Origin: Candidatus Gottesmanbacteria bacterium RIFCSPLOWO2_01_FULL_42_22
GTDB taxonomy: Bacteria; Patescibacteriota; Microgenomatia; 2-02-FULL-39-11
DNA length: 64,000 nt
Reading direction: 5' to 3'
Assembly (NCBI GenBank): GCA_001779315.1
Contig: MFJU01000042.1
Span: 747-64,746, forward strand
Position numbers and translations under genes: made by a program. The notes beneath the pieces were generated by a model. The model was given only the letters and a program-made list of their open reading frames with translations, ran no database searches and was not told the origin of the DNA. This document shows, one piece after another, positions 4,700 to 59,634 of this stretch. Numbering within the stretch: position 1 is the first letter of the stretch; each line of letters opens with the position of its first letter.

Positions 4700-4763
4700 G
4701 AATATAAAAAATTGAAAGTTAGACTGTTTTGGAAAAGATAATCTCGCAAGTAGTTTTCAGTTC

Positions 4764-4826
4764 TGATAATGACCGATTGGGGGAGTAATTTCTACGGATT
4801 TCTCCGTTTTTCTTCGGATTTTATAA
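4764..4826 (+). repeat. intergenic repeat copy E (junction plus right module)
   Basis: GGGGGAGTAATTTCTACGGATTTCTCCGTTTTTCTTCGGATTTT. Confidence 0.75.
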
Positions 4827-4868
4827 ATTAATATACAATTATATACTTATCACCTATAATAACCCTTA

Positions 4869-39612: not shown

Positions 39613-40092
39613 ATGAAGAAATTAAGGATAGGCTGGTTTTCCTTTTCCTGCTGTGAAGATTCGACCATTATTTTTACTGAACTTTTAAATGAGCATTTTG
39701 CCCAATGGCGCAAGCTCCTCGATATTAGAGCCATGCTGGTTTTACAGAAAAAAGAAGATATGACTTCACTGGATGTCGCCTTTGTCGAAGGGGCGGTAAC
39801 CTCCCGTGACCAGTCGGATAAATTGAAATTGATCAGAAACAGAGCCAAAAAACTGGTAGCCATCGGATCATGCGCCTGTATCGGCATGCCCTCAGCTCAG
39901 AGAAACCTTTTTAATGCGGAAACTAAAGCCGAGATTGAGGCTATATTGACCCGCTTTAAGTATTCGGAAAAAGTGCTGAAATTATCGGAAGTTGTCCCAA
40001 TCGATGACCAGGTGCCCGGCTGTCCCATGAATGAGAAAATTTTTCTGAATATTCTGGATAAATATTTAAAGGAATTTAAAATAGATGCATAA
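39613..40092 (+). CDS. [NiFe]-hydrogenase small subunit-like (NuoB-fold, proximal-cluster-only)
   Basis: SCCEDS, GSCACIG and PGCP cysteine motifs like NuoB/hydrogenase small subunits; 159 aa. Confidence 0.55.
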   Translation: MKKLRIGWFSFSCCEDSTIIFTELLNEHFAQWRKLLDIRAMLVLQKKEDMTSLDVAFVEGAVTSRDQSDKLKLIRNRAKKLVAIGSCACIGMPSAQRNLFNAETKAEIEAILTRFKYSEKVLKLSEVVPIDDQVPGCPMNEKIFLNILDKYLKEFKIDA

Positions 40093-41374
40093 TCTTGATT
40101 TGTCACTCTCCGATATCTCAAAGATTGAAGGCAAAGCCAGTTGTGATATCAAAATCCGCCATGGCAAAGTCGAGGACGTAAAATTTTCAATTAGCGAATT
40201 TAAACGTTTTTATACCCGGGCCATCAAAGGGAAGGACATAGTAGCGCTTCCCCAGCTGACCTGCCGGATCTGCGGTACCTGCTCCAATGCCCATTTGCTG
40301 TGTGCAATCAAAGCCTGCGAAAAAATTTTAGATATTCATGTTTCCGAGCAAACTGTGAAACTGCGGCGGCTTCTCAATTTCGGGCTTTTAATAAGAGACC
40401 ACGCTTTGCATTTATATATTTTTGTCATGCCGGATTTTTTCGGCCATGATTCGATTTTGGAATTTAAGGAAGATGACAGCCTGGAGCATAAATTTCTGCA
40501 CGATGCTTTCCAGGTAAAGGCGGTCGGCAATCATCTGAGCATTGCCGTTGGCGGCAGAAGTGTACACGCGCCTTATGCGGTGGTTGGCGGTTTCACCAGG
40601 TTACCAAACGGGGAAGAATTGAAAAAATGCAGCGATGAGCTGTCGGGTTTGAGAAACACGGTCATTGATCTGATCAAACTTTTTAAAGAAAAAGATAAAA
40701 CTTTAATTAGGCCCGATCTTCAATTTGCCGCGCTTTTGGATAGCGAATATTCATTTTTAGACGGAGAGATTTACCACTCAAAGGGCCGGGAAAGGGCTGG
40801 AAAATACGGGGATAATCTGGAATATGTTTCCATTCCTTATTCCCACGCTTCCGGCTTCAGGTTTAAAGGAAAAACCTATATGACAGGTGCTTTGGCCCGG
40901 CTGAATTTAGGCAAAGACAAGCTCCACCCCAAAACCCGCCAAAGCCTGAATTCAATTTTGGACCTCTTTCCCTCAAATAATATCTACCATAATAATTTGG
41001 CCCAAGCCATAGAGATTCTTCATTGTCTTGATTCGGCGGCTGATATTATTAAAAATTTTGTTATCAAAGAGGAGAAACCGCTACCCATAAACAGAAAGGC
41101 CGGGACAGGCGCGGGCGTCATCGAAGCACCGCGGGGTATTCTTTATTACCGTTTGTCAGTTGATGGTGGGGGAAAGGTTATAAAGGGTGAAATTGTCGTA
41201 CCAACCGGCCAAAATCAGATAGGCATAGAAGAATCAATCAGGCTTTACCTGGAAAACAATTTAACGAAATTTAAAGAAAAAGAAGATTTGGAAAAAGAAA
41301 TTGAATCAATTGTCCGCGCTTACGACCCCTGCATGAGCTGCGCTTCGCACTTTCTCAAAACCCGCTACAGCTGA
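40085..41374 (+). CDS. [NiFe]-hydrogenase large subunit
   Basis: N-terminal RICGTCSNAH (RxCGxCxxxH) and C-terminal DPCMSCASH (DPCxxCxxH) Ni-Fe ligating motifs. Confidence 0.75.
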   Translation: MHNLDLSLSDISKIEGKASCDIKIRHGKVEDVKFSISEFKRFYTRAIKGKDIVALPQLTCRICGTCSNAHLLCAIKACEKILDIHVSEQTVKLRRLLNFGLLIRDHALHLYIFVMPDFFGHDSILEFKEDDSLEHKFLHDAFQVKAVGNHLSIAVGGRSVHAPYAVVGGFTRLPNGEELKKCSDELSGLRNTVIDLIKLFKEKDKTLIRPDLQFAALLDSEYSFLDGEIYHSKGRERAGKYGDNLEYVSIPYSHASGFRFKGKTYMTGALARLNLGKDKLHPKTRQSLNSILDLFPSNNIYHNNLAQAIEILHCLDSAADIIKNFVIKEEKPLPINRKAGTGAGVIEAPRGILYYRLSVDGGGKVIKGEIVVPTGQNQIGIEESIRLYLENNLTKFKEKEDLEKEIESIVRAYDPCMSCASHFLKTRYS

Positions 41375-43596: not shown

Positions 43597-44028
43597 ATGG
43601 CACGTACAGCAAAAACAGTAGTTTATAACCGGATTGTCTTTGTATTCTCCCTGATAGGGTTAGTTATCGCCGCTTATGTCACGCAAAGTTTTTTGCGGCA
43701 AACCTCGATTGTCTGTCTGAATTCCGGCTGCGAGATTGTCCGCAAAAGCCCCATGAGTTACCCATTGGGTATTCCGGTTCCGGCAGTGGGTTTGGCCGGT
43801 TATGCTTTTCTGTCTGTTCTGGCTTTTTTAAGAACAACGTCATCTAAACGAAATTTAATTCCGCTGATTTTGGGCATGTCGGCCTTTGGCGTGGTTTTTG
43901 TCAGTTGGTTTACTTATACGGAACTCTTTGTGATAAAAGCTATCTGTACCTGGTGTGCTGTTTCAGCCGTCAATATGCTGGTAATCTTTACAATTTCATT
44001 ATTAATGTACAAGGAGGCTAAAAAATGA
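43597..44028 (+). CDS. vitamin K epoxide reductase (VKOR) family protein
   Basis: CxxC (CLNSGC) and CTWC active-site pairs in a 4-TM scaffold. Confidence 0.65.
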   Translation: MARTAKTVVYNRIVFVFSLIGLVIAAYVTQSFLRQTSIVCLNSGCEIVRKSPMSYPLGIPVPAVGLAGYAFLSVLAFLRTTSSKRNLIPLILGMSAFGVVFVSWFTYTELFVIKAICTWCAVSAVNMLVIFTISLLMYKEAKK

Positions 44029-44648
44029 ACTTAACAGGGGAAAGCAAATTTTTTATCGGAATTATTCTTGCGACAGTTGCCATAATTATCGGCGGCGTCT
44101 TTTTCATGTCCAAACCGGAAAAGCTTTTGGAAAAAAGCGAGTTAATCCCTGCCGGCAGCCAAATTAAAGGAAATTCAGAAGCCTCAGATTATCTGGTCGA
44201 GTTTTCAGATTTCCAGTGTCCGGCCTGCGGTGCTTTTTATCCCCAGGTAAAATCTTTAGTTAATGCCAATAAGGATAAATTATCCTTAAGTTACCGGCAT
44301 TTCCCTCTTGATCAGCACAAAATGGCCGTCCCTGCCGCCCTGGCAGCCGAAGCGGCCGCCGAACAGGGCAAGTTTTGGGAAATGCATGACTATATTTTCG
44401 AAAACCAGGCCGGACTTTCCGAGGAAATGCTTCTTTCAGCCGGCGAAAAACTGGGCCTGGACAAAGCCAAATACGAGGAGGCTTACAAAAATAAAAAGTA
44501 TCAGGAAAAAGTTTCCAAGGACCTGGCCGACGGTAAGCGTTTCAGCGTCAATGCCACCCCGACCTTTTTCCTGAACGGCAAAAAACTGAATCCGGTCAAC
44601 TTTGACGACCTCAAACGCTCTGTCGAAGAGGAATTGAAGAAGAATTAA
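44025..44648 (+). CDS. DsbA-like thioredoxin-fold oxidoreductase
   Basis: FSDFQCPACGAFYP CxxC motif; N-terminal TM; translationally coupled to VKOR. Confidence 0.65.
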   Translation: MNLTGESKFFIGIILATVAIIIGGVFFMSKPEKLLEKSELIPAGSQIKGNSEASDYLVEFSDFQCPACGAFYPQVKSLVNANKDKLSLSYRHFPLDQHKMAVPAALAAEAAAEQGKFWEMHDYIFENQAGLSEEMLLSAGEKLGLDKAKYEEAYKNKKYQEKVSKDLADGKRFSVNATPTFFLNGKKLNPVNFDDLKRSVEEELKKN

Positions 44649-44650
44649 CT

Positions 44651-47434
44651 CTAATTTTTCTTTTTAATGGCTTTAATGACCAGCATCTCGGGGTAATTTT
44701 TATCCGGATGCATTCGCAATGACGGGTCTTGACCTTCTTGAAACCGGGCAAGGATAAAACTATCTGTGAAGTACTGTGATAAATATTCCCCCAATGTGTG
44801 CTGAGGTTCAGGTATTGTCAATTTTTCACCTAGCTTAGTATTTACTTTACGCCTGCCAAAATAGTCATGAGGGTTATCGCTGAAAGCCATTTGGCTCATT
44901 GGATGATGAGCAAAAAATATCAAAGTTCCATCAGGCTTCAAACATCTAATAATTTCCCGAAAGATGGTATCGATATTTTCATTTTCATTAATGACATATT
45001 TACTGATTATTATGTCAAAGGTTTCGTCATCAAATGGCAATATAGACACATCGTTTTCCCGGAAACGATCAGCTAATTCCGGATATTTTTCTATTGTCTG
45101 GCTAATCATTTTCGAAGATCCATCTATCCCATATACATCAGCTCCATTATTATTCAGAAGATGCACTTCATTACCAGATCCGCAACCGTCATCTAATACT
45201 TTTTTACCGTTAAGTTCGGTTCCTAGCCATTCCAATAAGATTTCCTGTTCAATCGAACCGACTTCCTTCAATAAAGCATCCATTTGTTGAGTGTATATAT
45301 CGGCAGTTTCAGCATCATAACCGCCGACAGATTTTTCACCCGATATATATTTTTGTACTAAAGCATCAGGCAAATTTCTGTCACCCAGCTGATACCAAAG
45401 AAAATTGAATAATTCTTCTTCCATTTCCGGCATACCGATAATAATTTCATCCGGGGGAGGATTTAATCCTTGGACTAAACTATCGCTTGAAAGAATATTT
45501 ATTGAGCCGATAGAGGAAGCAGAAGGAATACCACAGAAAATCCTTGCTAATTGAAAATGCCTGATATATAAGGCAGTGGCCGGGTCGGGTTCCCTGAGAG
45601 TGTATAAGGTATAGCCGGCCATTTTCTGATTAGCAGTATCAACGTACAACTCGTAAAGAGCAATTTTAGCAGCACGCTCATCGAATCTCTTTATAAAATG
45701 CTTATTTACTCTGTCATGAGCATAAGATGATTTTGCTCCGGCTTTCACTAAAAAGGCAGCTGATGCTTCTTCTCGATTAAGGACGGCAAAGGCAGCCAGC
45801 CCTTTGCATAGTTTCATATAATAAATATCTGATTGACTACTCTCTTTTGCCGGCCGGAAATCCCGGCTTGCGGAAATATCGGGTAACAAATCAATCAGCC
45901 TTGTCCAATACCCAATATCAGATTCAGATGATTGCCTTTTATATCTACTCTCTTCAGGTAAAGAAGCATCAACTGCCCGGCAGAATGCTTCCTTTCCGTC
46001 TGATGACTGCCTATAAAAAGACAACAGTAAATTTTCAAAATTTTGATAATCCTGAATGCCTTTTAAGGCAGGAAAGACATCCTTTAAACCTATTGCCACC
46101 ATGAATTTCCATAAATTGTGCGGGTTTTTCTCAACTGCTTTGGTTAATTGAAGTATAAAATTACCTAAATCTTTCCAGGTATTTTGATCTCTCCATAAAC
46201 TTTCGTATAAAAGAAATTCAATCGGTGAATATATATTAAATACAGATGTGTTAATGTATTTTTCGTTTCCGTACGCCTTGTCCAAAATATGAAATTGGTA
46301 TTCAATATCTCCTCGAGTTTCTTCTGATAATACAGACAGTTCAGGTTCCTCTGGAATTTCATACGTTGCCTCTTCAGGTAATTTTCCTTCTTTTTCAACT
46401 GCTAAGTTTGCCAGTTCTGCGGATAAGTTCAAAAGTTTTAAATAGTAAATTGGCCTATAATATCTGAACATTTCTTCTCTTTTTATAAAATCGGTTGTAT
46501 ATGGAATATGACGTTCTAGCATCCTCCCTGATACGCTATAAATGGAAATCGGTGAATTTAATATTTTGATGGTATCCTCGGATATATGACCATATGATTC
46601 TGCTTCGCCAAAAATCCAGTTTACTCTAGCCCGCGGACTTAAGGCAGGATTATGACAGGAATGATAATAATCTGAAAACATTAAATCCTCCGTAGCTTCG
46701 CCGACAAGGTCTTTTAATTTAATGGTGAATAGAGTTCTTAATTTTGAATATTCCTGAACTGCTCCAGTTTCTGTATCCGTTTCAACTGCAATCCTTAATT
46801 CAATACGATCTGAATCAGTTATAGATGCGGTTTTCTCCAAAATTAAAATTGGCGAAATCTTTTTCGATTCGGAGCTCATGCTAAGCGGTTTCACACTTAA
46901 CAAGTTTTCATCTCCGGCTAATCTATATAAAACCGCGGCAGGATTTAATCCGTATTTTTCCGGCTCAAGCTGGCTGGCGGCAAAACGCTTCTCCAGGCTT
47001 TCCTGGATTGCTTCTTTTGTATGTGTAAGATTATTAAAATGGTTATGCCCGTTTTTATATCCTATATAGAAGGTTAAAGGGGATCCCTGTAATAATTTCA
47101 TTTGCAGATTAAATGCCTGACTTTGAGGATCAGCAGCAAATAAATTGATCCTGTTTGCATTTTCACCTGATGAAACGGATTGCTTTCTAATAAAGGGAAG
47201 AATATTTGAAGCAGACAAATAATAAGTCACGTCTGCGCTGGAAAGCAGTTCATTGCATAAGTGAAGTAATTTATTCATTTCATCCTTTTGGACAGGTGAA
47301 CCGTCAGGGAAAAATGAATCAACCAGTTGAGTCAGGGTAAGATCGAATCCGTCCCGAATCTCAAGTTCTTGGGAAATTCCGGTTTTCAAATTTAATTGTT
47401 CAAGCGCAACTGCCATAGATTTAGCCGAAAACAA
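44651..47434 (-). CDS. large protein with ~680-aa N-terminal region of unknown function and C-terminal class I SAM-dependent methyltransferase
   Basis: VLDDGCGSGNEVHLL (motif I), VYGIDGS, Methyltransf_11-like; no DNA-MTase NPPY motif. Confidence 0.6.
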   Translation of the reverse strand: MFSAKSMAVALEQLNLKTGISQELEIRDGFDLTLTQLVDSFFPDGSPVQKDEMNKLLHLCNELLSSADVTYYLSASNILPFIRKQSVSSGENANRINLFAADPQSQAFNLQMKLLQGSPLTFYIGYKNGHNHFNNLTHTKEAIQESLEKRFAASQLEPEKYGLNPAAVLYRLAGDENLLSVKPLSMSSESKKISPILILEKTASITDSDRIELRIAVETDTETGAVQEYSKLRTLFTIKLKDLVGEATEDLMFSDYYHSCHNPALSPRARVNWIFGEAESYGHISEDTIKILNSPISIYSVSGRMLERHIPYTTDFIKREEMFRYYRPIYYLKLLNLSAELANLAVEKEGKLPEEATYEIPEEPELSVLSEETRGDIEYQFHILDKAYGNEKYINTSVFNIYSPIEFLLYESLWRDQNTWKDLGNFILQLTKAVEKNPHNLWKFMVAIGLKDVFPALKGIQDYQNFENLLLSFYRQSSDGKEAFCRAVDASLPEESRYKRQSSESDIGYWTRLIDLLPDISASRDFRPAKESSQSDIYYMKLCKGLAAFAVLNREEASAAFLVKAGAKSSYAHDRVNKHFIKRFDERAAKIALYELYVDTANQKMAGYTLYTLREPDPATALYIRHFQLARIFCGIPSASSIGSINILSSDSLVQGLNPPPDEIIIGMPEMEEELFNFLWYQLGDRNLPDALVQKYISGEKSVGGYDAETADIYTQQMDALLKEVGSIEQEILLEWLGTELNGKKVLDDGCGSGNEVHLLNNNGADVYGIDGSSKMISQTIEKYPELADRFRENDVSILPFDDETFDIIISKYVINENENIDTIFREIIRCLKPDGTLIFFAHHPMSQMAFSDNPHDYFGRRKVNTKLGEKLTIPEPQHTLGEYLSQYFTDSFILARFQEGQDPSLRMHPDKNYPEMLVIKAIKKKN

Positions 47435-48755
47435 AGCCTTTCTTTTTTACGGTTTTCAATAAGTTTTCATCGATTCCGACAGCATTTAGTTTTTTCCTCA
47501 CCCGGTGGGCAAGAACATCTATCGCCCAATCGGAATATTTTTCCTCCCAACAGTCACCCCAAATAGTTTGGGCGATCACTTCACGGGATATGATTTTCTT
47601 TTTGGAATTAAGGAGAAGAAGCATCAGTAATTTTTCTTTATTGGTCAGTGTGTTAGTCAGATTATTTTTTCCGAGCATGATTTGGTCATGCTTGACGTGA
47701 ATAATATCCAGCTTCATTTCCTTTTCAATGATCTTTGAAAGAAGGGGCAGTCCGAGTTCAATACGATCCGATTTTTCTATAATGACCCTAATACTTTTTA
47801 AATATTCATATTCATGAGTCAGAGAATCGGTCTGTTCAATATTGCCCAGATATATCTTTCTGATGATATTTTTTTCTTCAGCTGTAAATTTGCCCCAAAT
47901 TACTTCCAGTTTGTTCAAAAGCAAAATATCCGTGCAGGCTTCATATACTGATAGTTGGAAATCATCCCTCAGGTTTCTGATGGCCTGATGGACAAGCCAG
48001 TGGTATCCGCCGCATATCCGATAAATTTCTTTGGCTGTTTTTTCCGGCAAAGTAACATTCCAGAGGTCACAGTAGAAATTGATAAATTGCAGCACATCCG
48101 GTTCATCGTACAAAGGGTATTTAATGATGTGATCAAAGAGGAATGAACACTTATCGGCTAAAACTTTATATTTATCATCGGTAATATCCAGTTCTGAAAA
48201 AACGATGACAGACAGATTTTTACTGGTCTGGACAAGCAGTTCCAAATCGATTAAAGGCTGATAATTTTTATAATTCAAGACCGGAACAATATGGGCTAAG
48301 AATAAACCGACTTCATAACCGCTTCCGGCAATCAAGTTCAATAACTCAATATTTGATAAGCTATTTAATGATTTTTTGTGACCAATCTTTCTTGAAAGAT
48401 AAAGTTCAACTAATGATTCATTGATCGTTTTGAGGAGATCCTTTTGGTCGATGGGGATGTATTTTAAGAGGTATTTTCGGTAATATGGACCAAAGTATTT
48501 TCTTAAGAGGTGCTTATTGTTAATTACCTCTGTCACACTGTATTCGCAGTCGTCCTGTAGTTGGATAATTGTTCCCGATTCAGTATAACGGATAATATTC
48601 AGCCACTTCTTAGCATTCGCCTCGATTGTTTTAACCGTTAAATCAGTTAAACACTTATTTGGATCTTTATAGCCGGCAGTCGAAAAAATACTCCACCACT
48701 GCCTGGCATTCTCCGATCCAATGTTAGTCTGTTTCTTTTGAGCGGTTCTATTCAT
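47421..48755 (-). CDS. protein with C-terminal OmpR/PhoB-type winged-helix DNA-binding domain, no receiver
   Basis: C-terminal EVIAQTIWGDCWEEKYSDWAIDVLAHRVRKKL...KTVKKKGFVF; N-terminal 350 aa unrecognised; 14-nt overlap with the downstream MTase gene. Confidence 0.5.
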   Translation of the reverse strand: MNRTAQKKQTNIGSENARQWWSIFSTAGYKDPNKCLTDLTVKTIEANAKKWLNIIRYTESGTIIQLQDDCEYSVTEVINNKHLLRKYFGPYYRKYLLKYIPIDQKDLLKTINESLVELYLSRKIGHKKSLNSLSNIELLNLIAGSGYEVGLFLAHIVPVLNYKNYQPLIDLELLVQTSKNLSVIVFSELDITDDKYKVLADKCSFLFDHIIKYPLYDEPDVLQFINFYCDLWNVTLPEKTAKEIYRICGGYHWLVHQAIRNLRDDFQLSVYEACTDILLLNKLEVIWGKFTAEEKNIIRKIYLGNIEQTDSLTHEYEYLKSIRVIIEKSDRIELGLPLLSKIIEKEMKLDIIHVKHDQIMLGKNNLTNTLTNKEKLLMLLLLNSKKKIISREVIAQTIWGDCWEEKYSDWAIDVLAHRVRKKLNAVGIDENLLKTVKKKGFVFG

Positions 48756-49014
48756 TTTAGACGGTCATAACAACCCAAACGTAAAAATGTAAGGATTTTG
48801 GCGGATTATACCCTTTTTTGTAAGGAAGTCAAATTTTCCTGACAAATTATGACAAGCAAAATATAACCTCTTCCTATACTCTATGGGCTGAATTTCTTTC
48901 TTTACGGGGTGGACCCGAAAAAAAAGGACGAAGTTCAGCTCTTTGACAGGAAGGAACCAATCAAGCCAGGATGCGCCCTGACTTGAAAATCTAAGTTTCC
49001 AACGGAGGAAAAAA

Positions 49015-49842
49015 ATGAACACCAGTAAGCTTTACATCCTATTGATTGTGTTGGTCACTCTGACTTCGTGCGCTTCGCCAGGCTCAACCCAAGTACCCCC
49101 TGCTTCTGTAAAAGCAGAATATGAACAGGAGACCTTCGAGCTGGGAAGTTTCGGAATGGTGGCTGTCCAAGCAGGGATTCTTGAGGCCGGAAACTACTAC
49201 TTCGTGCCCAGTGCAACCGCAGTCAGCGGCGGCATCTCCGTTTACTCCCTGACCCAGGGAACCGTGATCGGATTCCTAATCGAGAGGTTGGTTGAGGTCG
49301 GCCCCGGAATAATTCAGGATATGGTAGAGGGTCCGAGAACCTTCTACTGGGACGGCCAGATAACAACCATCAACCGGGCAACCGGAGAAATTCGGGTTTA
49401 CGCCCTCGAAGATGCCGATACTGCCGAGGCCGAAAATGCTAAAACTGATGAGGAGGCTCAGGCGAAAGCCGGAGAGGAGGAAAAAGTGAGCCAATATCAG
49501 AGTGATCCGATTATCCATGTCGATGATGATCCGACGTGGATAAGAATTGGAGCAGAAATCATAGGACCTACAATGGTCTTTAACGATTGCGAGTCTTTAA
49601 TCTCAGCGTTACAGGCTAATCCTGCTTTACATGGCCGTGCCTATATTGTTGACAACGATTTGGGTCCAGGAAAAATGAAAGGTCCTCAATGCGTGCAGCA
49701 GATTTTGGCCTTAAGGCCAGGGTCGGTCATCATTGGCCTCTCGGGAGGTTTCAATGATCCGGGGTTTGTAAACTCAGGTGCGAAAACCTGGGTGAGCAAA
49801 ACTAAAGTTGACTTCAAAACTTTCCGAGATCTACTGCCGTAA
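49015..49842 (+). CDS. putative lipoprotein with C-terminal receiver-like (CheY-fold) domain
   Basis: Lipobox LTSC after a signal peptide; IIHVDDDP...YIVDNDL...IIGLSGG resembles a receiver; locally GC-richer. Confidence 0.4.
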   Translation: MNTSKLYILLIVLVTLTSCASPGSTQVPPASVKAEYEQETFELGSFGMVAVQAGILEAGNYYFVPSATAVSGGISVYSLTQGTVIGFLIERLVEVGPGIIQDMVEGPRTFYWDGQITTINRATGEIRVYALEDADTAEAENAKTDEEAQAKAGEEEKVSQYQSDPIIHVDDDPTWIRIGAEIIGPTMVFNDCESLISALQANPALHGRAYIVDNDLGPGKMKGPQCVQQILALRPGSVIIGLSGGFNDPGFVNSGAKTWVSKTKVDFKTFRDLLP

Positions 49843-49951
49843 GTTAAACGTCTTTCCTGTCGTCTGACAGGGATCGGTGGCCATCAGAGGCGCTTCTCAT
49901 TCCATCGATTCCTGTCAATTTTTTTAAGTGATGAGATCGGGGAAGCGGGGA

Positions 49952-50383
49952 TTAAAACTCATTGATACTTCTTAGATACTGAAGGAAATTTCCCGGTTTG
50001 ATTATTAAAATCCCCAAATCATTTTCGATTTTGTTTGCTTTGTAATGCCGGCTGTTATGGGACAGTAAGAATTTAGACTTTGATAGGTAAGCTCCGGCAA
50101 CCACATGTGAATCTTCTTCATCAATGACATAATCCCCATAATTTTTGATTAAATCTTTTTTGGTTATATCAAAAGCGATTGTTCTGAGATTGTTGAGGAT
50201 TTTTACGGTGCTCCCAGCTTCAATATTAAGTCTTTTTCCCACTTCTTTTACCTCTTCTGCAACGGTATTGGTAATTATTTTTTCAATTTTGGGAATTTTG
50301 ATGACGTTAAAGGAAGCGCCGGTTTTTGAAAGCAGGGAGGAGATAATGACATCAGTGTCTAAAAAGACCCGGATTTTTGCCAT
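49952..50383 (-). CDS. PIN-domain protein (toxin-like)
   Basis: IRVFLDTDVIISSL N-terminus. Confidence 0.6.
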   Translation of the reverse strand: MAKIRVFLDTDVIISSLLSKTGASFNVIKIPKIEKIITNTVAEEVKEVGKRLNIEAGSTVKILNNLRTIAFDITKKDLIKNYGDYVIDEEDSHVVAGAYLSKSKFLLSHNSRHYKANKIENDLGILIIKPGNFLQYLRSINEF

Positions 50384-50634
50384 AGCTTTTGACGGACATT
50401 TCTGATAGTTTCATTCACTTTTTCCAATCCAGCTTCATCCGTCTTCTGGGCTTTTAATATATCCTCATCCATCCCGGTGAAGACAAAGGAAATTGAACTT
50501 GCGGGAATTCGATACACCTTTCCGATTTTTTTGGCAATAATTTCTCCTCTGCCGATCAGCTCATAAATGGTGTTTTTGCTCAACTGGAGTATTTCTGCGA
50601 CTTGTTCCGGTGTGTACGTTCTTGGATGTAACAT
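50359..50634 (-). CDS. HTH (excisionase/MerR-like HTH_17) putative antitoxin
   Basis: YTPEQVAEILQLSKNTIYELIGRGEI; overlaps the PIN gene. Confidence 0.5.
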   Translation of the reverse strand: MLHPRTYTPEQVAEILQLSKNTIYELIGRGEIIAKKIGKVYRIPASSISFVFTGMDEDILKAQKTDEAGLEKVNETIRNVRQKLWQKSGSF

Positions 50635-50708: not shown

Positions 50709-51080
50709 TTGTTAAATTTCGAGGATTATAAGTCCCCAAAATATGCCGAATTTAAGGAGCCGGTGGTAAACAAAGCGTTTTTACAAGACCATTATTTAGG
50801 TCTTGACATAAGACCTATATATAGGTTAAACTATTGGTATATGATTTCAACATCTATTTCTCAACTTAAAGCAAACCCATCCGCTGTGATTGAACAAGCA
50901 GCCGATTATCCGGTAGCAGTCGAAAGCCGGAATGATGTCAAAGCCTATCTCATCGGTAAAAATCTTTTTGAAAAAATGATTGCATTTATTGAAAATTATG
51001 CAGATGCCGAAGCTGTTAAAAAGGCAGACTTCAAAAGCGGAAAAGACTTAGAAGAAGTAGCCAAAGAACTTGGGATATGA
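50709..51080 (+). CDS. Phd/YefM-type antitoxin
   Basis: ISQLKANPSAVIEQAADYPVAVESRNDVKAYLI; the true start may be the internal Met near 50844. Confidence 0.5.
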   Translation: MLNFEDYKSPKYAEFKEPVVNKAFLQDHYLGLDIRPIYRLNYWYMISTSISQLKANPSAVIEQAADYPVAVESRNDVKAYLIGKNLFEKMIAFIENYADAEAVKKADFKSGKDLEEVAKELGI

Positions 51081-51340
51081 AGATTGTTTTATCTCCTAGG
51101 ACGGAAAAACAGCTCAGAAATCTACCGAAATTTGACCAGATAGCTATAGCAGAGAAAATCCGCAATTTGCCTCAAAGTCAACAGTCAGGGGAAGAAAAAC
51201 TGTCCGGTTTCCCCGGCATCTACAGGGTAAGGGTAGGAAATTACCGAATTGTTTATAAAAAGCTGGCTGATTCTTTCTATATTGTTATAATTCGTCATCG
51301 ACGGGATGTCTACCGCTTAGTCAAAGATTTATTGGGCTAG
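51077..51340 (+). CDS. RelE/ParE-family toxin
   Basis: 87 aa; IYRVRVGNYRIVYKKLADSFYIVIIRHRRDVY; overlaps the antitoxin stop. Confidence 0.7.
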   Translation: MKIVLSPRTEKQLRNLPKFDQIAIAEKIRNLPQSQQSGEEKLSGFPGIYRVRVGNYRIVYKKLADSFYIVIIRHRRDVYRLVKDLLG

Positions 51341-52598
51341 CATACAGATCTTCCAGTTCCTTGACCCCGCCGAAGGCGATGCGGTCAAGAACAAGATCAT
51401 CCATGCCGAGCATTAAAGCAGGGGTAATGACAAATTCGCCGAAACGGTTATTGATTTTGTCGGCGGCATCGGTGACGTCCCTGTTTTTGCTTTTTTCTGT
51501 CCGGAAAAGCTCCTCCTGGACAAATTTTTTCTCGAAGAGTTTAAAACAGCTGACGGCCAGTTTAGCCACTTTTTTCGAAGGATGCGTTTGGTTGTTAAAG
51601 ACCAGCATGACCTTTTTGAACAGTTCTCCCGTGGTATACATTTCGGTCGCAAAAGTTTCCCCCCGGTGCCAATGGGTGTAGTCGGTATAGATAACGGCAA
51701 CATGGATGCCCAAAGCTGTATAACCGTGGCGGCGCAATCTTCGGCCCATTTTTTCCGTCAGTTTCATTAACAACCGGGCCAGCTCTCTTTTATCAGAGGT
51801 GAATTTGCCCAAGGCATAGGACTGTCCGAAGCTTTTGCGCTCAAACTCAATCGCATCAATCTCCCAGCCGCGCAATCTCAAATACCAGTAATGGCCGACA
51901 ATGCTCTGGAAAACCTCTTTGATAAGAAGTTCGCGTGAAGCTTTCAAAAAATCCAAAGGAGTAAAAATGTCCCGGGCGTTGAGTCTGGCCTGAAAGCGCG
52001 TATTGATGCCGCAAAGATCAATCAAAGTTACCCTGTCATAAACTTCCTCCAGGTTTTGCCAGTTGATCGTCTGAAGCCCGTCCGGCTTTTTTAAAGAAGC
52101 CGCCAGTTTGGCCAGAAAGCGGTTGGTGGAGATGCCGACTGAAACGCTAATCCACTCGCCGATTTCCCGTTTAATCCGTTTTTTTATTTCACTGCCGACA
52201 TCCTCAAGGCTTTTATTTTTTATTTGGCAGCCGCTAAAATCCAGGACTGCCTCGTCAATAGATTTGGGAAAAACGTCGGGTGAATATTCCTTGAAGATCC
52301 GGCTGAATTTCAAATGAACATCCCTGTATTTGGGAGGATCAGGCGGCCGCACGATTATTTGAGGACAAAGAAGTCGGGCTTCCCGCACCGTCATGCCGAC
52401 CCTAACCCCGTACCTTTTAGCTTCAATTGAGGGAGCGATGACACAGCCGTTGCCGGTGGTGTAGGCAGCTACAGCTACCGGTTTGCCGCGCAGCAGTGGA
52501 TTGGCCTGCTGTTCGGCGGTGGCAAAACAGGAGTTCATGTCAATATGCATGACCAGGGGCAAGTTGCGGTTAAGAGGCAAGTCCATCGCTGACCTCAT
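51321..52598 (-). CDS. Y-family DNA polymerase (DinB/UmuC-like)
   Basis: MHIDMNSCFATAEQQANPLLRGKPVAV N-terminal catalytic motif. Start placed at Met 52598 or 52586; the track's 52724 start overlaps the upstream ORF. Confidence 0.8.
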   Translation of the reverse strand: MRSAMDLPLNRNLPLVMHIDMNSCFATAEQQANPLLRGKPVAVAAYTTGNGCVIAPSIEAKRYGVRVGMTVREARLLCPQIIVRPPDPPKYRDVHLKFSRIFKEYSPDVFPKSIDEAVLDFSGCQIKNKSLEDVGSEIKKRIKREIGEWISVSVGISTNRFLAKLAASLKKPDGLQTINWQNLEEVYDRVTLIDLCGINTRFQARLNARDIFTPLDFLKASRELLIKEVFQSIVGHYWYLRLRGWEIDAIEFERKSFGQSYALGKFTSDKRELARLLMKLTEKMGRRLRRHGYTALGIHVAVIYTDYTHWHRGETFATEMYTTGELFKKVMLVFNNQTHPSKKVAKLAVSCFKLFEKKFVQEELFRTEKSKNRDVTDAADKINNRFGEFVITPALMLGMDDLVLDRIAFGGVKELEDLYASPINL

Positions 52599-52842
52599 CA
52601 AGTCTCCAAAAAAGAGTTTCCGTATCCAGTTCAAGCCGGAAAGCCAGCGAATTGTTGGAGACTGAGAAAATATGGAGAAGTTTTTTGCCCTGTTTGACTT
52701 TGTGGTGGTAGCCGATCTTGTCAATTATGTAGATGCGGCCCTGCCATTTGATTTTTTGGGGCATGACCGTCCTTTTTTCCCGGTCAAAAACCGTCACCAC
52801 GCTGATTTTTTCGTTGATTTTTTCGTTCATAAAATCGCTCAA
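52570..52842 (-). CDS. small protein between lexA and the Y-family polymerase (possible polymerase accessory, YolD-like?)
   Basis: 90-aa ORF in operon position; no confident family. Confidence 0.3.
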   Translation of the reverse strand: MSDFMNEKINEKISVVTVFDREKRTVMPQKIKWQGRIYIIDKIGYHHKVKQGKKLLHIFSVSNNSLAFRLELDTETLFWRLDEVSDGLAS

Positions 52843-52860
52843 AATGACACGTAACTCTTT

Positions 52861-53433
52861 TCAGTGATATTTCCGGATGACCGAGATGACAATGCCGAAA
52901 ATGATGAGATTTTCTTTCGGATACAGGGGTTTGTATTTGCTGTTGCCTGCTGAGAGAAAAACGAGATTATCTTTTTTGCGGAAATACTTGAGAGTGAATT
53001 CATCATCAATTGCCGCCACCACGATATCGCCCTCTTTAGGTTGGCGGCCCTTTTCCACAATCACCATATCGCCTTCGTGGATGCCGGCCTCAATCATCGA
53101 ATCCCCTGAAACCCTAAGAAGATATGATCTTTCGGGGCGGGCAATCAGATAGTCATCAAAGGAAACGGCAGACAGAAGCTGCTCTTCGGCGGCTGTCGGA
53201 CTGCCGGCGCGGATAATACCTAAAACAGGCAGGGAGGGAAAAAGCTGTTTCGGCATAAGTTTGCCGGTAGAGTCCTTCCCCAATATGCCGGCTTCGATGA
53301 GTTTGGCCGCCAATTTAAAACTGGCTCCCTTGGAAGAGAAACCGAAAAGACGGCACATTTCCTGATAAGAGGGGAGACGCTTGTTTTTGCGGAAAAAGCG
53401 GCGGATTTTCTGTACAGCAGACTCAAGATTCAT
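52861..53433 (-). CDS. lexA: LexA repressor
   Basis: N-terminal wHTH; S24 peptidase motifs VSGDSM and GDIVVAAIDDEFTLK; perfect GAAC-N4-GTTC box upstream. Confidence 0.8.
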   Translation of the reverse strand: MNLESAVQKIRRFFRKNKRLPSYQEMCRLFGFSSKGASFKLAAKLIEAGILGKDSTGKLMPKQLFPSLPVLGIIRAGSPTAAEEQLLSAVSFDDYLIARPERSYLLRVSGDSMIEAGIHEGDMVIVEKGRQPKEGDIVVAAIDDEFTLKYFRKKDNLVFLSAGNSKYKPLYPKENLIIFGIVISVIRKYH

Positions 53434-55112: not shown

Positions 55113-55577
55113 TTATCTGGTTACAGAAATATCAACGGCTGGTATTTCGGTAAAAGGCGCCGAGACTGTTACCCTATTATCTGCTGTTTGCACAACCTGA
55201 TATCCGGTGTTATAGGCTGATCCTACCGTACAGTCTGTAATATTGTTTCCTCCAAGAGATGGATCTGGATCTTGTGGAAGAGCAGCAATATAGCGGGTGA
55301 TCAGATCCGTGCAAATATTGGCACCGGCTTCACTGATATTTTGGGCAGTGCCTGTAATACCAACTGGTAGAGCTCCCTTGTTATCTGCTGCATACTGATG
55401 GATGGCGTTTAAAATAGTATTAACATCACTGGCTCTTTTTGTGTCATTCGCCTGGGAGAATTGCCTGGCCGGATTAATGGCGATTAAGGTGATAGCCAAA
55501 AGCGTGGCCAGAATTCCGATAACAACCAGGAGTTCGATTAAGGTAAAACCCCGGTTGCGGGCAGAGAATTTTTTCAA
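55113..55577 (-). CDS. type IV pilin (PilA-like)
   Basis: Prepilin leader and GFTLIELLVVIGI N-terminal helix. Confidence 0.7.
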   Translation of the reverse strand: MKKFSARNRGFTLIELLVVIGILATLLAITLIAINPARQFSQANDTKRASDVNTILNAIHQYAADNKGALPVGITGTAQNISEAGANICTDLITRYIAALPQDPDPSLGGNNITDCTVGSAYNTGYQVVQTADNRVTVSAPFTEIPAVDISVTR

Positions 55578-55675
55578 AATTAATCACCCCCCTTCGCCCC
55601 GATTTAATCGGGGCAAATCCTTCTATTTCCAGGCTACTATGGATTTGAGCTTGTTGTCAAGATGAATTAGCAATT

Positions 55676-56359
55676 TTATCCGGCTGACTGACGGTAGAGC
55701 ATAAAAAGCAGAAAGGAAAAAAGCAGGACAAAGACACCCAGAAGGAGGTAAACCCGGTTTAAACCCATGACCTTTTTTTCCGGTTCTTTCGGTTTGTGTG
55801 CTTCCTCTGCCAAACCGGCGATCATAGTCTGCTCTTTGAGGTAATCAGTTTTGGCCAATAAAAAACCGACGGACGGTGCATCTAAAGTCGTAAGATTCAT
55901 GCCGGTTACAGAAGACGGAATGACTGTAAAAACGGTAAAACCGCGATTTTTGAAAGTTTCCATAAATACCTGCAGAAAATCAATATTGGCGGCCGATAGC
56001 AAAAACCCTTTTTCCAGTTTGTAAATCTTATGAACATTATTTTCGAAAGGCAGATGATAAAGGAAATCTTCGATGATATTTTTCTGAAGATCCTCTTTCT
56101 CTTCGCTGAAATTTTTTTCAAAGGTAATCTGGGGGGATAAAATAAAGATGAGCCTGGCCGGAGGCAGTTTGTGGTAATTGATAAAAAGCTTCAATTGCAT
56201 TTCCAGCTCTTTACTGTTGACAATTTCCATAAACCTAACCAGTTTGTCCGGGTAATTATAGACGGCTATTTGGTTGTTTACCGAGTTAAAATAAACGAGT
56301 TTGTCTCTGTCCAAAAAAACAACGGCTAAATTTTGAAGGCTTTTCATATCAGGGAACAT
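55676..56359 (-). CDS. hypothetical pilus-associated protein with C-terminal TM anchor
   Basis: Position in the pilus operon; one TM helix. Confidence 0.3.
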   Translation of the reverse strand: MFPDMKSLQNLAVVFLDRDKLVYFNSVNNQIAVYNYPDKLVRFMEIVNSKELEMQLKLFINYHKLPPARLIFILSPQITFEKNFSEEKEDLQKNIIEDFLYHLPFENNVHKIYKLEKGFLLSAANIDFLQVFMETFKNRGFTVFTVIPSSVTGMNLTTLDAPSVGFLLAKTDYLKEQTMIAGLAEEAHKPKEPEKKVMGLNRVYLLLGVFVLLFSFLLFMLYRQSAG

Positions 56360-56729
56360 CCTTCCAAGAGATTAGGCTGATTATATTATTATTCAAATTA
56401 AGATTTACCTCCACCCTTTTTTTCTTATTGCCGTAGTTGGCTTGGGCTGAAACAGTCTTGTCGGTTAATCCTGTAACGGTGATTTGGCAGTTTCCCTCAT
56501 TGATATCCAGTGATTCTCCCGAATAGGCAGGATTGCGGATAAGGCGGATAATGGCATTTTCAATACAGGAATCGGCAATGGATTTGGCACTGTCACCTGA
56601 AATTAATAAAGTCGATGAGGCAGAACCCAGAATCATTAAAGATACGGCCGCCGTGATAACGGTGACAGCCAAAACCATCAGAAACATTAATATTACCAGA
56701 GCGAATCCGCCCGAATTATTTTTTTTCAT
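56349..56729 (-). CDS. pseudopilin-like protein
   Basis: N-terminal hydrophobic helix GFALVILMFLMVLAV. Confidence 0.4.
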   Translation of the reverse strand: MKKNNSGGFALVILMFLMVLAVTVITAAVSLMILGSASSTLLISGDSAKSIADSCIENAIIRLIRNPAYSGESLDINEGNCQITVTGLTDKTVSAQANYGNKKKRVEVNLNLNNNIISLISWKDVP

Positions 56730-57211
56730 CTTAAAGATGCGGTTAAAGCGTAATTTGCAGTTCTCGCCTCTCCCGCTTCCAAAATCAGACTTTGCAATTC
56801 AAATTCTATTTTGACAGCCGGTTTTCCCGTAATATTGCCGATTCTTCTGACTGTAAAACTGTTTAAAGCCGTACCATAGCCGTTTAATTTTCCGCTGACA
56901 ATACCATTATTATAGAAAAGATTGGATCCTGAAAGGAAAAAATCGTGTGTCTGGCCTGCCTGTTCGAGAGAAATATCGGATGCGACATCTCCGGGATTAG
57001 CCGGAACTTGGATATTATCGGCCTGATATATTTCATTGGTCAGTTTTTTAATAATAAACATGGCGTCCTGGGAGCTTAAAGAGGTGGAAGCCGATTCTTT
57101 TTGCAGATCAAGAACTGAGGCGATCAGCTGAGCGACAATAATCAGAAAGGAAAAAAGCAGAAAACCATAGAGAATTGTTTCGATTAAGGTTGAGCCTTTA
57201 TTGAATTTCAT
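56726..57211 (-). CDS. minor pilin/pseudopilin
   Basis: STLIETILYGFLLFSFLII prepilin-like N-terminus. Confidence 0.5.
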   Translation of the reverse strand: MKFNKGSTLIETILYGFLLFSFLIIVAQLIASVLDLQKESASTSLSSQDAMFIIKKLTNEIYQADNIQVPANPGDVASDISLEQAGQTHDFFLSGSNLFYNNGIVSGKLNGYGTALNSFTVRRIGNITGKPAVKIEFELQSLILEAGEARTANYALTASLR

Positions 57212-59133
57212 GGTGAATAATTGACGGAAACATCATATAACACCGGACTGAAAGATGAATCCGCTGATGTCAGTTCGGCCTTGTAGCGAAAACACCTGCC
57301 GGGATTAACATATGGTAGATTTATAATCAATGGTATGGGACCGGCCGCGCTAAAATAAGTATCAGCCGCTCCGTCTGGTCCGACGTATGAATATTGCGCT
57401 TCCGAACAGTTATTATTGACAGCTTCTGAAGAAGCTACCTGGAGAGCGAGACTGGTTTGGGTAGGCCGGTCAAAATTAAAGTCAAAGCGGTTGAAAGCAA
57501 CGGTTTGGCCGGCATCAAACGGCGCAGATTCAAAAGTTCCCTGTGAGGAATACTCACCGCCGGGTCCGCCGGCAATTATTTTAAGTTCGGAAGTTGAATC
57601 ACCGGTGATGATATAAGAATAGGCATCCCCGTCCGTTTCCAGAACGGAGAAGACTCCGTTGATACCTGAATCAATATTTAAACCGCCGCATCTGGACAGA
57701 GGAGGATTAACCGATTCACTCGAAATATTAATAACCTGATATTCTTCGCCTCCGGTTCCGACCAAGATAGCCCTGTTTCCGGGAACAACGGTAATACCCT
57801 GCGGATTCATACCGTTGGCTTCATAAACTGCCACAACCTGCCTTTGCCCGCTTTTATTTTCAATATCAAGAACAAACAACTCAAACTTGTTAGATGATGC
57901 TTCCGTAGCCAAATATGCCCGGGTGGCTGAAGAATTGACAAAAATGTCTTTGCCGTCGTCAGCATTCAAATTTGCCCAACCGACGATGTTTAAAGTTTGG
58001 CCCCCGTTTGTAACCTCAATAATTTGCATCTGGGTTGTCTCGGATTCCACGGCCACATAAGCATAATTACCCAAAACGATAACCTGTTCACCTTTTCCGG
58101 CTAAAGCAACAGAGCCTAATTTCAGTCTGGAGCCTGTTTTTAAGTCTAAATTAAACGTATACAGGGTGTTGCCGGCAGTGGCAAAACCGATATTGCCCGA
58201 TGTAAAAACACTTTCTCCGTCTGTAATCCCCGGAGCATCAAAAAAACCGACCTCGGCAAATTTTCCGTTAACCTGGTTATTTAAATCCATAATGACAATT
58301 TCTTTACTGTTGGTGTCTGTAGCTATGTAAGCATAATTTTCTTCACCAAAGACATCATTGGTTTTATAGCCGTCAAATGTCCCGTTAATCGTGCCCGAAG
58401 GCGATGAGGGTGGAGGCGGATTGCTGATATCAACCCGGGCAAAAGACACCCCCGAAGCATTATTGCCGGTACCGGCCACGACCTGACCTTCGATGGCGGA
58501 CACGGCGTTGGCGACACCGTTTTTGGGTAAATCGACAGCTTCGATAGAAAGATTGGGATCACACCAGCTGGATATACCGCCTGAACCGAGCATAATTTCT
58601 CCTCCTAAATCAGCAGAAATAACCGTACCCGTCAGGCTGCCTTTCTCAAAATCAGCCACCGAAGTTTCCGTATGTGATCCGTTATTAAGGAATCTTGTTA
58701 AATACCATGTTTGGGAAATATTGCCCGAGTGAGGCAAAGACCAGCTGACGTCAACCGTTATTTTTTTCGTCGAAGGATCGCTAGTGCCGCTTGCAGATAA
58801 TACGCCTGCGCTATCCCTGAGAGCGTCTTCAATGGTAAGTGCCCTGGTAAAGCCGTTGATTGTTTCGGGACCGCTGTTTAAAACAAAGCTGTTAGCGGAG
58901 ACGGCCGGATGATAGCTGCCGTTTACTTCGATTTCATGCCAATTGCGCTCCCTTATCATTCTGACTGCTTCTTCCGCTTCCCGAGTCAGGGAAAAAGCAT
59001 TTAACCTTTGGGCGAGCATGCTTCGGCCGTCTCTTCCGGCTATAATCCCGGAAAAAAGGGCGGGAAAGAGAATAGCCATTAAAGTCACAGCTACTAAAAG
59101 TTCAATAATCGACTGGCCTTGGGTTTTCAGCAT
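57208..59133 (-). CDS. large minor pilin / pilus tip adhesin-like protein (641 aa)
   Basis: Prepilin-like QSIIELLVAVTLMAIL N-terminus followed by a large repeat-rich domain. Confidence 0.5.
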   Translation of the reverse strand: MLKTQGQSIIELLVAVTLMAILFPALFSGIIAGRDGRSMLAQRLNAFSLTREAEEAVRMIRERNWHEIEVNGSYHPAVSANSFVLNSGPETINGFTRALTIEDALRDSAGVLSASGTSDPSTKKITVDVSWSLPHSGNISQTWYLTRFLNNGSHTETSVADFEKGSLTGTVISADLGGEIMLGSGGISSWCDPNLSIEAVDLPKNGVANAVSAIEGQVVAGTGNNASGVSFARVDISNPPPPSSPSGTINGTFDGYKTNDVFGEENYAYIATDTNSKEIVIMDLNNQVNGKFAEVGFFDAPGITDGESVFTSGNIGFATAGNTLYTFNLDLKTGSRLKLGSVALAGKGEQVIVLGNYAYVAVESETTQMQIIEVTNGGQTLNIVGWANLNADDGKDIFVNSSATRAYLATEASSNKFELFVLDIENKSGQRQVVAVYEANGMNPQGITVVPGNRAILVGTGGEEYQVINISSESVNPPLSRCGGLNIDSGINGVFSVLETDGDAYSYIITGDSTSELKIIAGGPGGEYSSQGTFESAPFDAGQTVAFNRFDFNFDRPTQTSLALQVASSEAVNNNCSEAQYSYVGPDGAADTYFSAAGPIPLIINLPYVNPGRCFRYKAELTSADSSFSPVLYDVSVNYSP

Positions 59134-59134
59134 C

Positions 59135-59629
59135 TTAATTTACGGATATAACCGCCCCCCAGGCATTCAATGTCAGAGTTTGTCTGTCATTGGTAATGCT
59201 GTTTGATAAAGAAAGCGTATTTTGTCCGGAATCATAAGCGGTCACTTCACCTGTCAGGGCAGAAAAAACTACGGACTGTTGGGGCAGATTTACATTATCG
59301 AACGTCAAATTATCATTTAAATTAACCGTAATGTTTGAAGGTGATGCGTCAGAATAAGACGTCCCTGAAAAAAGGGTATAAGAATTCGGGGAAAAATAAA
59401 TTCCATATGCGGAAGATATACCTTCGCTTGTTTGCCCTGCCAATGCTTTTAGCTGCTGATTTTTGATATCCGAAACCAGTGTCGTCATTTGGGTTGTCAG
59501 AGATGAATGTTCCGGGGTTTGGGAAATATTGACGGACAAAATTGCATATAAAACCAGGAGAATTGCCATGACGATAACCAGCTCTATGAGGGTAAATCCT
59601 TTTTGATGCGGGAAAGGTTTTTTTTTCAT
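59135..59629 (-). CDS. pilin/pseudopilin
   Basis: KGFTLIELVIVMAILLVL prepilin N-terminus. Confidence 0.55.
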   Translation of the reverse strand: MKKKPFPHQKGFTLIELVIVMAILLVLYAILSVNISQTPEHSSLTTQMTTLVSDIKNQQLKALAGQTSEGISSAYGIYFSPNSYTLFSGTSYSDASPSNITVNLNDNLTFDNVNLPQQSVVFSALTGEVTAYDSGQNTLSLSNSITNDRQTLTLNAWGAVISVN

Positions 59630-59634
59630 TAAAA

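Follow-up and report, generated by a model that had tools for sequence, protein, structure and literature searches.

Can a receiver domain work on the outer face of a bacterial cell? Receiver domains are among the most abundant bacterial signalling modules and are regarded as strictly cytoplasmic phospho-acceptors. The question is raised by a gene for a 275-residue protein in a 64 kb stretch of Candidatus Gottesmanbacteria DNA (contig MFJU01000042.1; the whole stretch is referred to below as the window). Its product, here called the REC protein, has a lipoprotein-type signal at the N terminus and a CheY-like receiver domain (REC) at the C terminus. A sequence-only reading of the locus had noted both features and had proposed that either the topology call or the domain call was wrong, or that the domain was a pseudo-receiver used as a structural module. 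In our analysis both calls stood: the lipobox recurs among the relatives, and the receiver is confirmed in its fold and in its residues. The reading that we prefer, with a probability of roughly 0.55, is that the protein is an exported, disulfide-braced receiver-fold lipoprotein, which would serve as a surface-anchored binding or sensing module and whose expression would be controlled by a neighbouring regulator.

A receiver domain behind a lipobox

The three motifs on which the receiver call was first based lie at residues 170-172 (DDD), 211-216 (IVDNDL) and 239-245 (IIGLSGG). The domain escapes searches made with a single sequence: a Pfam scan of the REC protein itself gave no match to PF00072 (Response_reg) at E<=1, and single-sequence searches against Pfam, NCBIfam and PDB were uninformative for it, so that family profiles are required. 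We gave no weight to a weak match of the protein to PilY2 (E = 0.0026), which fell below the cutoff. Among five close family members, four match PF00072 (best E = 4.8e-6). The scores of the relatives range between 21.1 and 30.2 bits, the upper value being exactly the gathering threshold of PF00072, which the REC protein itself misses. When the family profile is compared with PDB, receivers are the sole matches, with EvgA first, and D213 is aligned with the EvgA phospho-acceptor D52. The AlphaFold2 (AF2) model of residues 166-275 has the (beta-alpha)5 flavodoxin-like fold, at a predicted local distance difference test (pLDDT) score of 82-98. The best 50 Foldseek matches to this model are, every one, solved receivers, DrrB, CheY, EvgA, NtrX and Spo0F among them (TM-score to target 0.7-0.78, root mean square deviation 2-2.5 A). 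Membership of the receiver superfamily is therefore assigned from profile and fold evidence, and the original call of a CheY-like domain over the C-terminal ~110 residues, for which a profile search had been suggested as the check, is borne out.

The residues of the phospho-acceptor site are also in place, namely the acidic pair D170/D171, the phospho-acceptor D213, S243 and K262, together with the aromatic switch W259. Among 47 family members D213 is conserved in 45, D171 in 43, the Ser or Thr in 41 and the Lys in 35. Judged by these residues, the domain is a true receiver without obvious degeneration. At the level of residues the idea of a pseudo-receiver finds no support, since the family preserves the acidic pair together with the phospho-Asp, the Ser and the Lys. 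In its general sense the idea holds, because a use outside a phosphorelay is the most likely consequence of an extracytoplasmic location. One position sets the family apart. In control RECs the conserved Lys is most often followed by proline (44/103), but in the family proline does not rank among the six commonest residues at that place.

At the other end of the protein, the open reading frame (ORF) is preceded by GGAGG at 49004-49008, 6 nt before the start codon. Both this Shine-Dalgarno sequence and the ATG are invariant in a DNA alignment of four diverged orthologous loci, and the N terminus is therefore free of a start-codon artefact. It reads MNTSK-LYILLIVLVTLTS-C19 and fits a PROSITE PS51257-style lipobox rule, in which a positive n-region and an uncharged h-region precede [LVI][ASTVI][GAS]C with the Cys at position 15-35; the corresponding elements are K5, L6-S18 and L-T-S-C19. 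Among ORFs of at least 80 residues in all six frames of the window, this is the only protein that matches the rule. The lipobox is kept in 17/17 long-form relatives, which are 22-66% identical to the window protein, and in each long form it is followed by a tether rich in Ser, Thr, Pro and Ala. Residues 4-18 are helical in the AF2 model. The signal peptide with an LTSC lipobox, as the sequence-only reading had it, is in good agreement with both the pattern and its conservation. Pattern-based lipobox rules do yield false positives, and one orthologue has a longer upstream ORF (327 residues), so that the signal could in principle be false or the start wrong, leaving a soluble cytoplasmic single-domain response regulator with an odd N-terminal extension. 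We regard this as very improbable: the start signals are kept in the DNA of the four diverged loci, the hydrophobic N terminus with its Cys recurs in all 17 long forms, the N terminus is hydrophobic in every short form listed, and no second lipobox match occurs in the 64 kb.

The protein is rare in sequence space and stable in its context. An identical protein in the same context is found on at least 23 independent contigs from several studies, including GCA_000998355.1 and GCA_001779425.1, and the identical copies are annotated as a hypothetical protein of Candidatus Gottesmanbacteria (Patescibacteria/Microgenomates, of the candidate phyla radiation, CPR; groundwater). One orthologue carries the public label 'Response regulatory domain-containing'. 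A word-indexed search of 5.8 billion proteins returned 4 relatives only, and an exhaustive hidden Markov model search of 1.84 billion representatives returned 154 matches at E<=1e-3, with 27 at E<=1e-10. Locus-finding pattern scans gave one locus in genomes, with patterns drawn from the acidic linker, and two in metagenomes. The closest matches fall into two architectures (family proteins are numbered P0002 and so on, and loci L001 and so on). Long forms, of about 270-360 residues, comprise a lipobox signal, an S/T/P-rich tether, a variable middle region, a linker and REC; short forms, of about 160-200 residues, comprise a hydrophobic N-terminal segment, a short linker and REC.

The modules of the long form in the window are given in Table 1. 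The tether has a mean pLDDT of about 50 and no secondary structure in the AF2 model. The middle domain is modelled as strands, at a pLDDT of only 40-65, and Pfam and NCBIfam scans assigned it to no family; it is common to P0100-P0135 and also to P0115, a protein without REC. In P0117, as in P0004 and P0109, the middle region is replaced by hydrophobic segments rich in Ala, Gly, Val and Pro. The acidic linker of the window protein contains an imperfect 24-nt tandem duplication (49407-49454, 71% identity), which suggests that this low-complexity linker may grow by slippage.

Table 1. Features of the REC locus and its surroundings (positions in the window; aa, amino acids)
Feature	Position	Strand	Details
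REC protein ORF	49015-49842	+	ATG start, 275 aa
Lipoprotein-type signal peptide, aa 1-18, and lipobox L16-T17-S18-C19	49015..49071	+	Cys19 codon 49069-49071
S/T/P/A-rich tether turning acidic, aa 20-39	49072..49131	+	read directly from sequence
Beta-rich middle domain, aa 40-130	49132..49404	+	conserved motif IQDxxEGPxTFYWDG
Acidic low-complexity linker, aa 131-165	49405..49509	+	pLDDT <50
Receiver (CheY-like) domain, aa 166-275, and stop codon	49510..49842	+	D170/D171, C192, D213, C226, S243, W259, K262
Probable intrinsic terminator	49865..49925	+	16-bp stem (49865-49880 with 49902-49917), then T7 run
Divergent intergenic region, 259 bp	48756..49014	.	between REC and winged-helix genes
AAA+/winged-helix regulator, 444 aa	47421..48755	-	Trans_reg_C 8.4e-13
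Large gene, 927 aa	44651..47434	-	co-oriented with regulator gene and overlapping its end; C-terminal S-adenosylmethionine (SAM) methyltransferase, Methyltransf_11 1.9e-19
VKOR	43597-44028	+	in window
DsbA-like	44025-44648	+	adjacent to VKOR; pair 4.4-5.4 kb upstream of REC gene
Histidine kinase, PAS-HisKA-HATPase	38001-39524	-	9.5 kb from REC gene; cytoplasmic catalytic core
PIN_3 + HTH_17 pair	49952-50634	-	Pfam; 3' of REC gene
Phd/ParE pair	50709-51340	+	Pfam; 3' of REC gene

Which side of the membrane

The location of the domain was assessed by sequence proxies: the lipobox pattern, hydrophobicity scales, flank charges and cysteine counts. A Kyte-Doolittle scan with windows of 19 residues and a threshold of 1.6 detects no further hydrophobic segment beyond the signal in the window protein, P0002, P0003, P0100 or P0101. 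The relatives that do have one carry it before the conserved IQDxxEGP motif, and a few long forms carry two. The main rival reading is that the receiver is cytoplasmic and membrane-tethered: the N-terminal segment, alone or with the middle segment as a second span, would be the anchor, a membrane histidine kinase would phosphorylate D213, and REC would control its winged-helix neighbour, which has no receiver, as a 'split' response regulator. We consider this arrangement less likely than export. The number of hydrophobic segments differs among homologues (1, 2 or 3), and therefore these segments cannot put REC on one consistent side of the membrane. Charged residues (E, R and E) interrupt GTVIGFLIERLVEVGPGII, which is internally the most hydrophobic part of the window protein and which sums by hand to about +9 kcal/mol on the biological (Hessa-type) insertion scale; AF2 models it, at low confidence, as strand and coil and not as a transmembrane (TM) helix. 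On that scale, with a listing threshold of 3.0, only the N-terminal signal is insertion-grade in 16/17 long forms, and P0120 has one marginal segment. A hidden TM helix in the middle domain was set aside as the principal interpretation on these grounds, namely the inconsistent segment count, the charged version in the window protein, the verdict of the biological scale in 16/17 and the modelled strands.

Other features of the N terminus also speak against a plain N-out anchor with a cytoplasmic receiver, since the lipobox Cys and the S/T/P tether would serve no role in it, and since the N-regions hold the positive charge in most family members. In the short forms the flank charges favour N-in/C-out in 14 and C-in in 7, with 5 ties. 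Slight further hints of export come from P0106, which matches a twin-arginine translocation (Tat) signal below threshold (13.3 bits against a cutoff of 16.7), from a PMT_2 glycosyltransferase gene directly 3' of P0120, and from the CPR contig that carries P0117, which encodes Lgt (PF01790, 4.4e-9). On the last contig (L019), P0117 is located at 4416-5000, downstream of the lgt gene, with a tRNA-like sequence between the two.

Of particular interest are the cysteines of the receiver domain. C192 stands at the start of helix 2 and C226 in the first turn of helix 3, and neither varies in an alignment of 30 members whose mean column identity is 21%; among the 47 family members C192 is present in 45 and C226 in 43. 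Both are found in 35/44 members that have an N-terminal anchor, compared with 17/107 of those without one, and the number of cysteines in the mature chain is even in 15/17 long and 24/26 short forms (39/43), compared with about 50% in stand-alone RECs, all of these being counts over phylogenetically non-independent proteins. Losses also tend to be paired or made good. Both cysteines are gone from P0114. In P0120, P0180 and the L009 protein one or both are missing, and another pair is present elsewhere in REC. Extra cysteines occur as close pairs in five members, and P0111 is an exception, with one unpaired Cys before REC and a total that is still even. P0120 and P0180 have one Cys pair in the linker immediately upstream of REC, past the hydrophobic segment. 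In these two proteins cysteines are paired on either side of the putative span, which speaks against the cytoplasmic arrangement. Where an organism has DsbA and VKOR, a bias towards even cysteine counts is a recognised sign of exported proteins (PMC12421883). The window encodes both VKOR and a DsbA-like protein, and the organism is therefore able to form disulfides in exported proteins.

Several observations weigh against export and must be set beside this evidence. The phospho-acceptor quintet is intact and strongly kept, a pattern that a receiver phosphorylated in the cytoplasm would be expected to show. An OmpR-type DNA-binding protein is the conserved neighbour and has no receiver of its own, which invites the 'split response regulator' reading, and it recurs in 7/9 loci, down to about 25% identity and beside short and long forms alike. 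REC is the sole detectable receiver in the 64 kb, and 9.5 kb away lies the gene for an orphan membrane kinase whose PAS-HisKA-HATPase core is cytoplasmic. By the Kyte-Doolittle scale a TM-grade middle segment is present in about half of the long forms, a patch rich in K/R immediately precedes REC strand 1 in many members, and the C-in charge bias is seen in 7/26 short forms. The non-independence of the proteins lessens the force of the cysteine statistics. Neither lgt nor lspA was identified among the annotated genes of the window, most of whose ORFs were unscanned. Finally, we know of no receiver domain that works outside the cytoplasm, so the prior is low, and phrase searches for exported, periplasmic or secreted receiver domains returned no relevant precedent in the literature. 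The cytoplasmic arrangement has in turn to account for the points already raised against it and for the absence from the family of the Lys-Pro motif of canonical RECs. On balance, export of the whole mature chain, REC included, appears more likely than not from the sequence evidence, and our confidence in it is limited because the prior is low and all of the topology tests are proxies.

If the exported, disulfide-braced lipoprotein is the correct reading, the events may be pictured as follows. In a host that would be a single-membrane CPR bacterium, the signal peptide would direct export by the Sec pathway. Cys19 would be lipid-modified and the signal cleaved (Lgt/LspA pathway), so as to leave the mature chain on the outer face of the cell membrane, with the S/T/P-rich tether first and then the beta-rich middle domain, the acidic linker and the receiver-fold domain. 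The receiver domain would be braced by a C192-C226 disulfide formed by VKOR/DsbA. Kinases and ATP are unavailable outside the cell, and the receiver is therefore probably not a component of a phosphorelay; the acidic pocket formed by D170/D171, D213 and K262 would more likely bind a divalent cation or a small phosphoryl-type ligand, and the protein would then act as an extracytoplasmic binding or sensing module. The AAA+/winged-helix neighbour would most likely control its expression from the conserved intergenic region.

Divergent regulator, intergenic region and base composition

The divergently transcribed partner contains an Orc1/Cdc6- or STAND-like AAA+ module and a C-terminal OmpR/PhoB-type winged helix, and has no receiver domain. 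Its AF2 model has a pLDDT of 89, with Foldseek matches to PABY2304, SSO1545, Orc1/Cdc6 and CED-4, and its profile matches OmpR-family DNA-binding domains in PDB. Ahead of the winged helix it is thus similar to AAA+ ATPases of archaea as well as to Orc1/Cdc6 and STAND proteins. Direct reading of the sequence finds no GKT P-loop, and for this reason the partner may be a pseudo-ATPase. The REC gene is divergent from a Trans_reg_C protein of 350-445 residues in the seven loci (out of nine with enough flank) that comprise the window, L001, L014 (the P0003 locus), L009, L013, L017 and L018; the exceptions are L019 and L020. The short forms in this set are those of L009 and L018. The partner family comprises about 95 clusters, which greatly exceeds the size of the REC family, and its members also occur without a REC neighbour.

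The partner gene is always followed by the large gene, whose C terminus is a methyltransferase in the window and a cytidine/MafB19-type deaminase in relatives. The two form a conserved two-gene unit in Microgenomates (44651-48755 in the window; also L009, L010, L014, L017 and L018), in which the N-terminal parts of the large gene product look homologous by eye and the C-termini differ. PADLOC gave generic methyltransferase or deaminase domain matches only, and a known defence system was rejected. A tie between this large gene and the lipoprotein is something we infer from synteny only. No canonical response regulator was found in the window, where REC is the only detectable receiver, and the histidine kinase listed in Table 1, the sole kinase there, has two TM helices about 4 residues apart and is of the intramembrane-sensing type.

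The intergenic region between the REC and partner genes is conserved well beyond what the proteins would suggest, with a mean DNA column identity of 78% across loci whose proteins are only 47-66% identical. It is conserved above the flanking coding sequence in the window, L001, L012, L014 and L009. A promoter scan finds a conserved, near-consensus minus-strand promoter for the winged-helix gene (TTGACT-16-TATAAT, 48832..48805), and the region also contains a CTTTGACA box at 48941-48948 and an invariant, hairpin-capable block of ~40-55 nt at about 48936-48990. A 39-nt pattern from the region has an exact match in 10 loci, and the blocks are still recognisable in L009 and L017. The simplest reading is that this is a dense operator/promoter region from which the winged-helix protein would control both transcription units; it may be an operator array or a structured 5' leader. 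Rfam gave no family match for the conserved leader, and RNAalifold finds 3-4 compensatory pairs with a positive (unfavourable) covariation term, which supports an RNA structure only faintly.

The sequence TCCTG(T/A)CA is over-represented in the window (9 copies compared with 2.7 expected), with three copies within 1.1 kb of the REC gene, and it clusters on both sides of that gene (48837, 48944, 49855-49875, 49910). Also, TTGACAGGAA upstream (48943-48952) is the perfect reverse complement of TTCCTGTCAA in the terminator stem (49909-49918). One public assembly (L003) annotates as a gene an ORF of 85 residues on the minus strand (48765-49022). This ORF lies wholly within what we describe as the conserved noncoding intergenic region, overlapping the lipoprotein start, and is probably a spurious gene call.

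Downstream, the hairpin and T7 run at the end of the REC gene are probably its intrinsic terminator. The RNA fold has a free energy of -30.3 kcal/mol (z = -3.5; 0/200 shuffles fold as well), and with its 21-nt loop the structure escaped a simple terminator scan and was found as an inverted repeat. With a terminator of its own, the REC gene appears to be a self-contained unit. The stretch that follows does contain the toxin-antitoxin island that had been noted there, in the form of the PIN_3/HTH_17 and Phd/ParE pairs, and is AT-rich as well (GC 0.35-0.41). A UmuC-like (IMS) and LexA/UmuD-like (S24) pair on the minus strand (51321-53433) comes directly after the toxin-antitoxin genes, and further on (55113-62369, minus strand) there is a type IV pilus-like cluster that includes N_methyl pilins and T2SSF. 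On the other side, the VKOR/DsbA pair adjoins HypC-like and NiFe-hydrogenase genes (39613-41374).

The REC gene is also richer in GC than its flanks, as had been remarked, with a GC content of 0.499 compared with 0.404 for the window (99.4th percentile of 828-bp windows). The increase extends to all three codon positions, whose GC ranks at percentiles 94, 90 and 86 among the ORFs of the window. Such a value, next to mobile-looking neighbours (the toxin-antitoxin pairs and UmuDC), could be taken to mean that the gene was recently acquired from a foreign source or that the assembly is chimeric. This is largely refuted, and we give it next to no credence. The identical protein recurs in the same context on the independent contigs described above, and syntenic orthologues at 47-66% identity retain the neighbours. 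In 6/6 syntenic orthologous loci the GC of the REC gene exceeds that of its winged-helix neighbour by 7-14 points, whatever the GC of the locus (0.355-0.513), so that the hint of foreign origin drawn from the GC patch finds no support. Eight other window ORFs of at least 150 residues have a GC content at third codon positions (GC3) of at least 0.5. The protein is rich in Ala, Gly, Pro, Val and Thr and poor in Lys, Asn, Leu and Phe, and it is this composition that accounts for the high GC of its gene. Thus the high GC is, on the sequence evidence, a stable family trait and not a sign of recent transfer.

Comparison with known systems

The REC protein departs from other carriers of a very familiar domain in its architecture and, as predicted, in its location. 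If the domain is indeed exported, a receiver fold, possibly with an aspartyl-phosphate or metal pocket, would have been reused on the cell surface, and the reading of 'response regulator' annotations would change, especially in CPR bacteria. If instead the receiver is cytoplasmic, a membrane-tethered receiver and a separate OmpR-type DNA-binding protein would make up an unusual split architecture. A broader proposal, which we put forward as speculative and unlikely to hold in full, is that the protein stands as the first representative of a small family, from CPR/Microgenomates, of receivers that are truly extracytoplasmic, disulfide-braced and anchored by a lipid or a signal segment. In such a family the Asp/Mg2+ pocket might be used for sensing of metal or phosphoryl ligands or for small-molecule phospho-chemistry, and with the AAA+/winged-helix regulator that lacks REC and a variable deaminase/methyltransferase gene it might constitute an undescribed module for signalling or regulation.

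Among the closest known systems are the CheY-like receivers and single-domain response regulators (PF00072), with which the protein has in common the fold, the acidic pair and the phospho-Asp; residues S243, W259 and K262 occupy the positions of the Ser/Thr, the aromatic switch and the Lys. It differs from them in its N-terminal lipoprotein signal, tether and extra domain, in a nearly invariant pair of Cys residues, one where helix 2 begins and one where helix 3 begins, in the missing Pro after the conserved Lys and in a predicted location that is extracytoplasmic; it also escapes Pfam, and its relatives score at or below the gathering threshold. With the OmpR/PhoB-family regulators the locus shares the presence of one REC and one OmpR-type winged helix. 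Here, however, each half belongs to a protein of its own, encoded by divergent genes; a degenerate AAA+ module takes the place of REC in the winged-helix protein, and REC carries an export signal, in a protein without a DNA-binding domain.

Lipid-anchored extracytoplasmic proteins that feed signalling pathways are well known, for example LpqB (which acts with MtrB), QseG (with QseE; PMC6075780), RcsF and NlpE. The REC protein resembles these accessory two-component lipoproteins in its lipid anchoring and extracytoplasmic place, as predicted here, but none of them has a receiver fold. Also, a kinase with an external domain is not found nearby, as the only kinase of the window has a loop of ~4 residues between its TM helices. 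A precedent for the chemistry is provided by lipoprotein e(P4) and the class C acid phosphatases, which are extracytoplasmic members of the HAD superfamily and carry out aspartyl-phosphate chemistry outside the cytoplasm with a Rossmann-like domain and an Asp/Mg2+ pocket. The active sites of HAD proteins and CheY are geometrically alike. No HAD motifs were found in the REC protein, and Pfam and NCBIfam scans gave no HAD or phosphatase family for it, so that the likeness to these phosphatases is one of analogy and not of homology at the family level.

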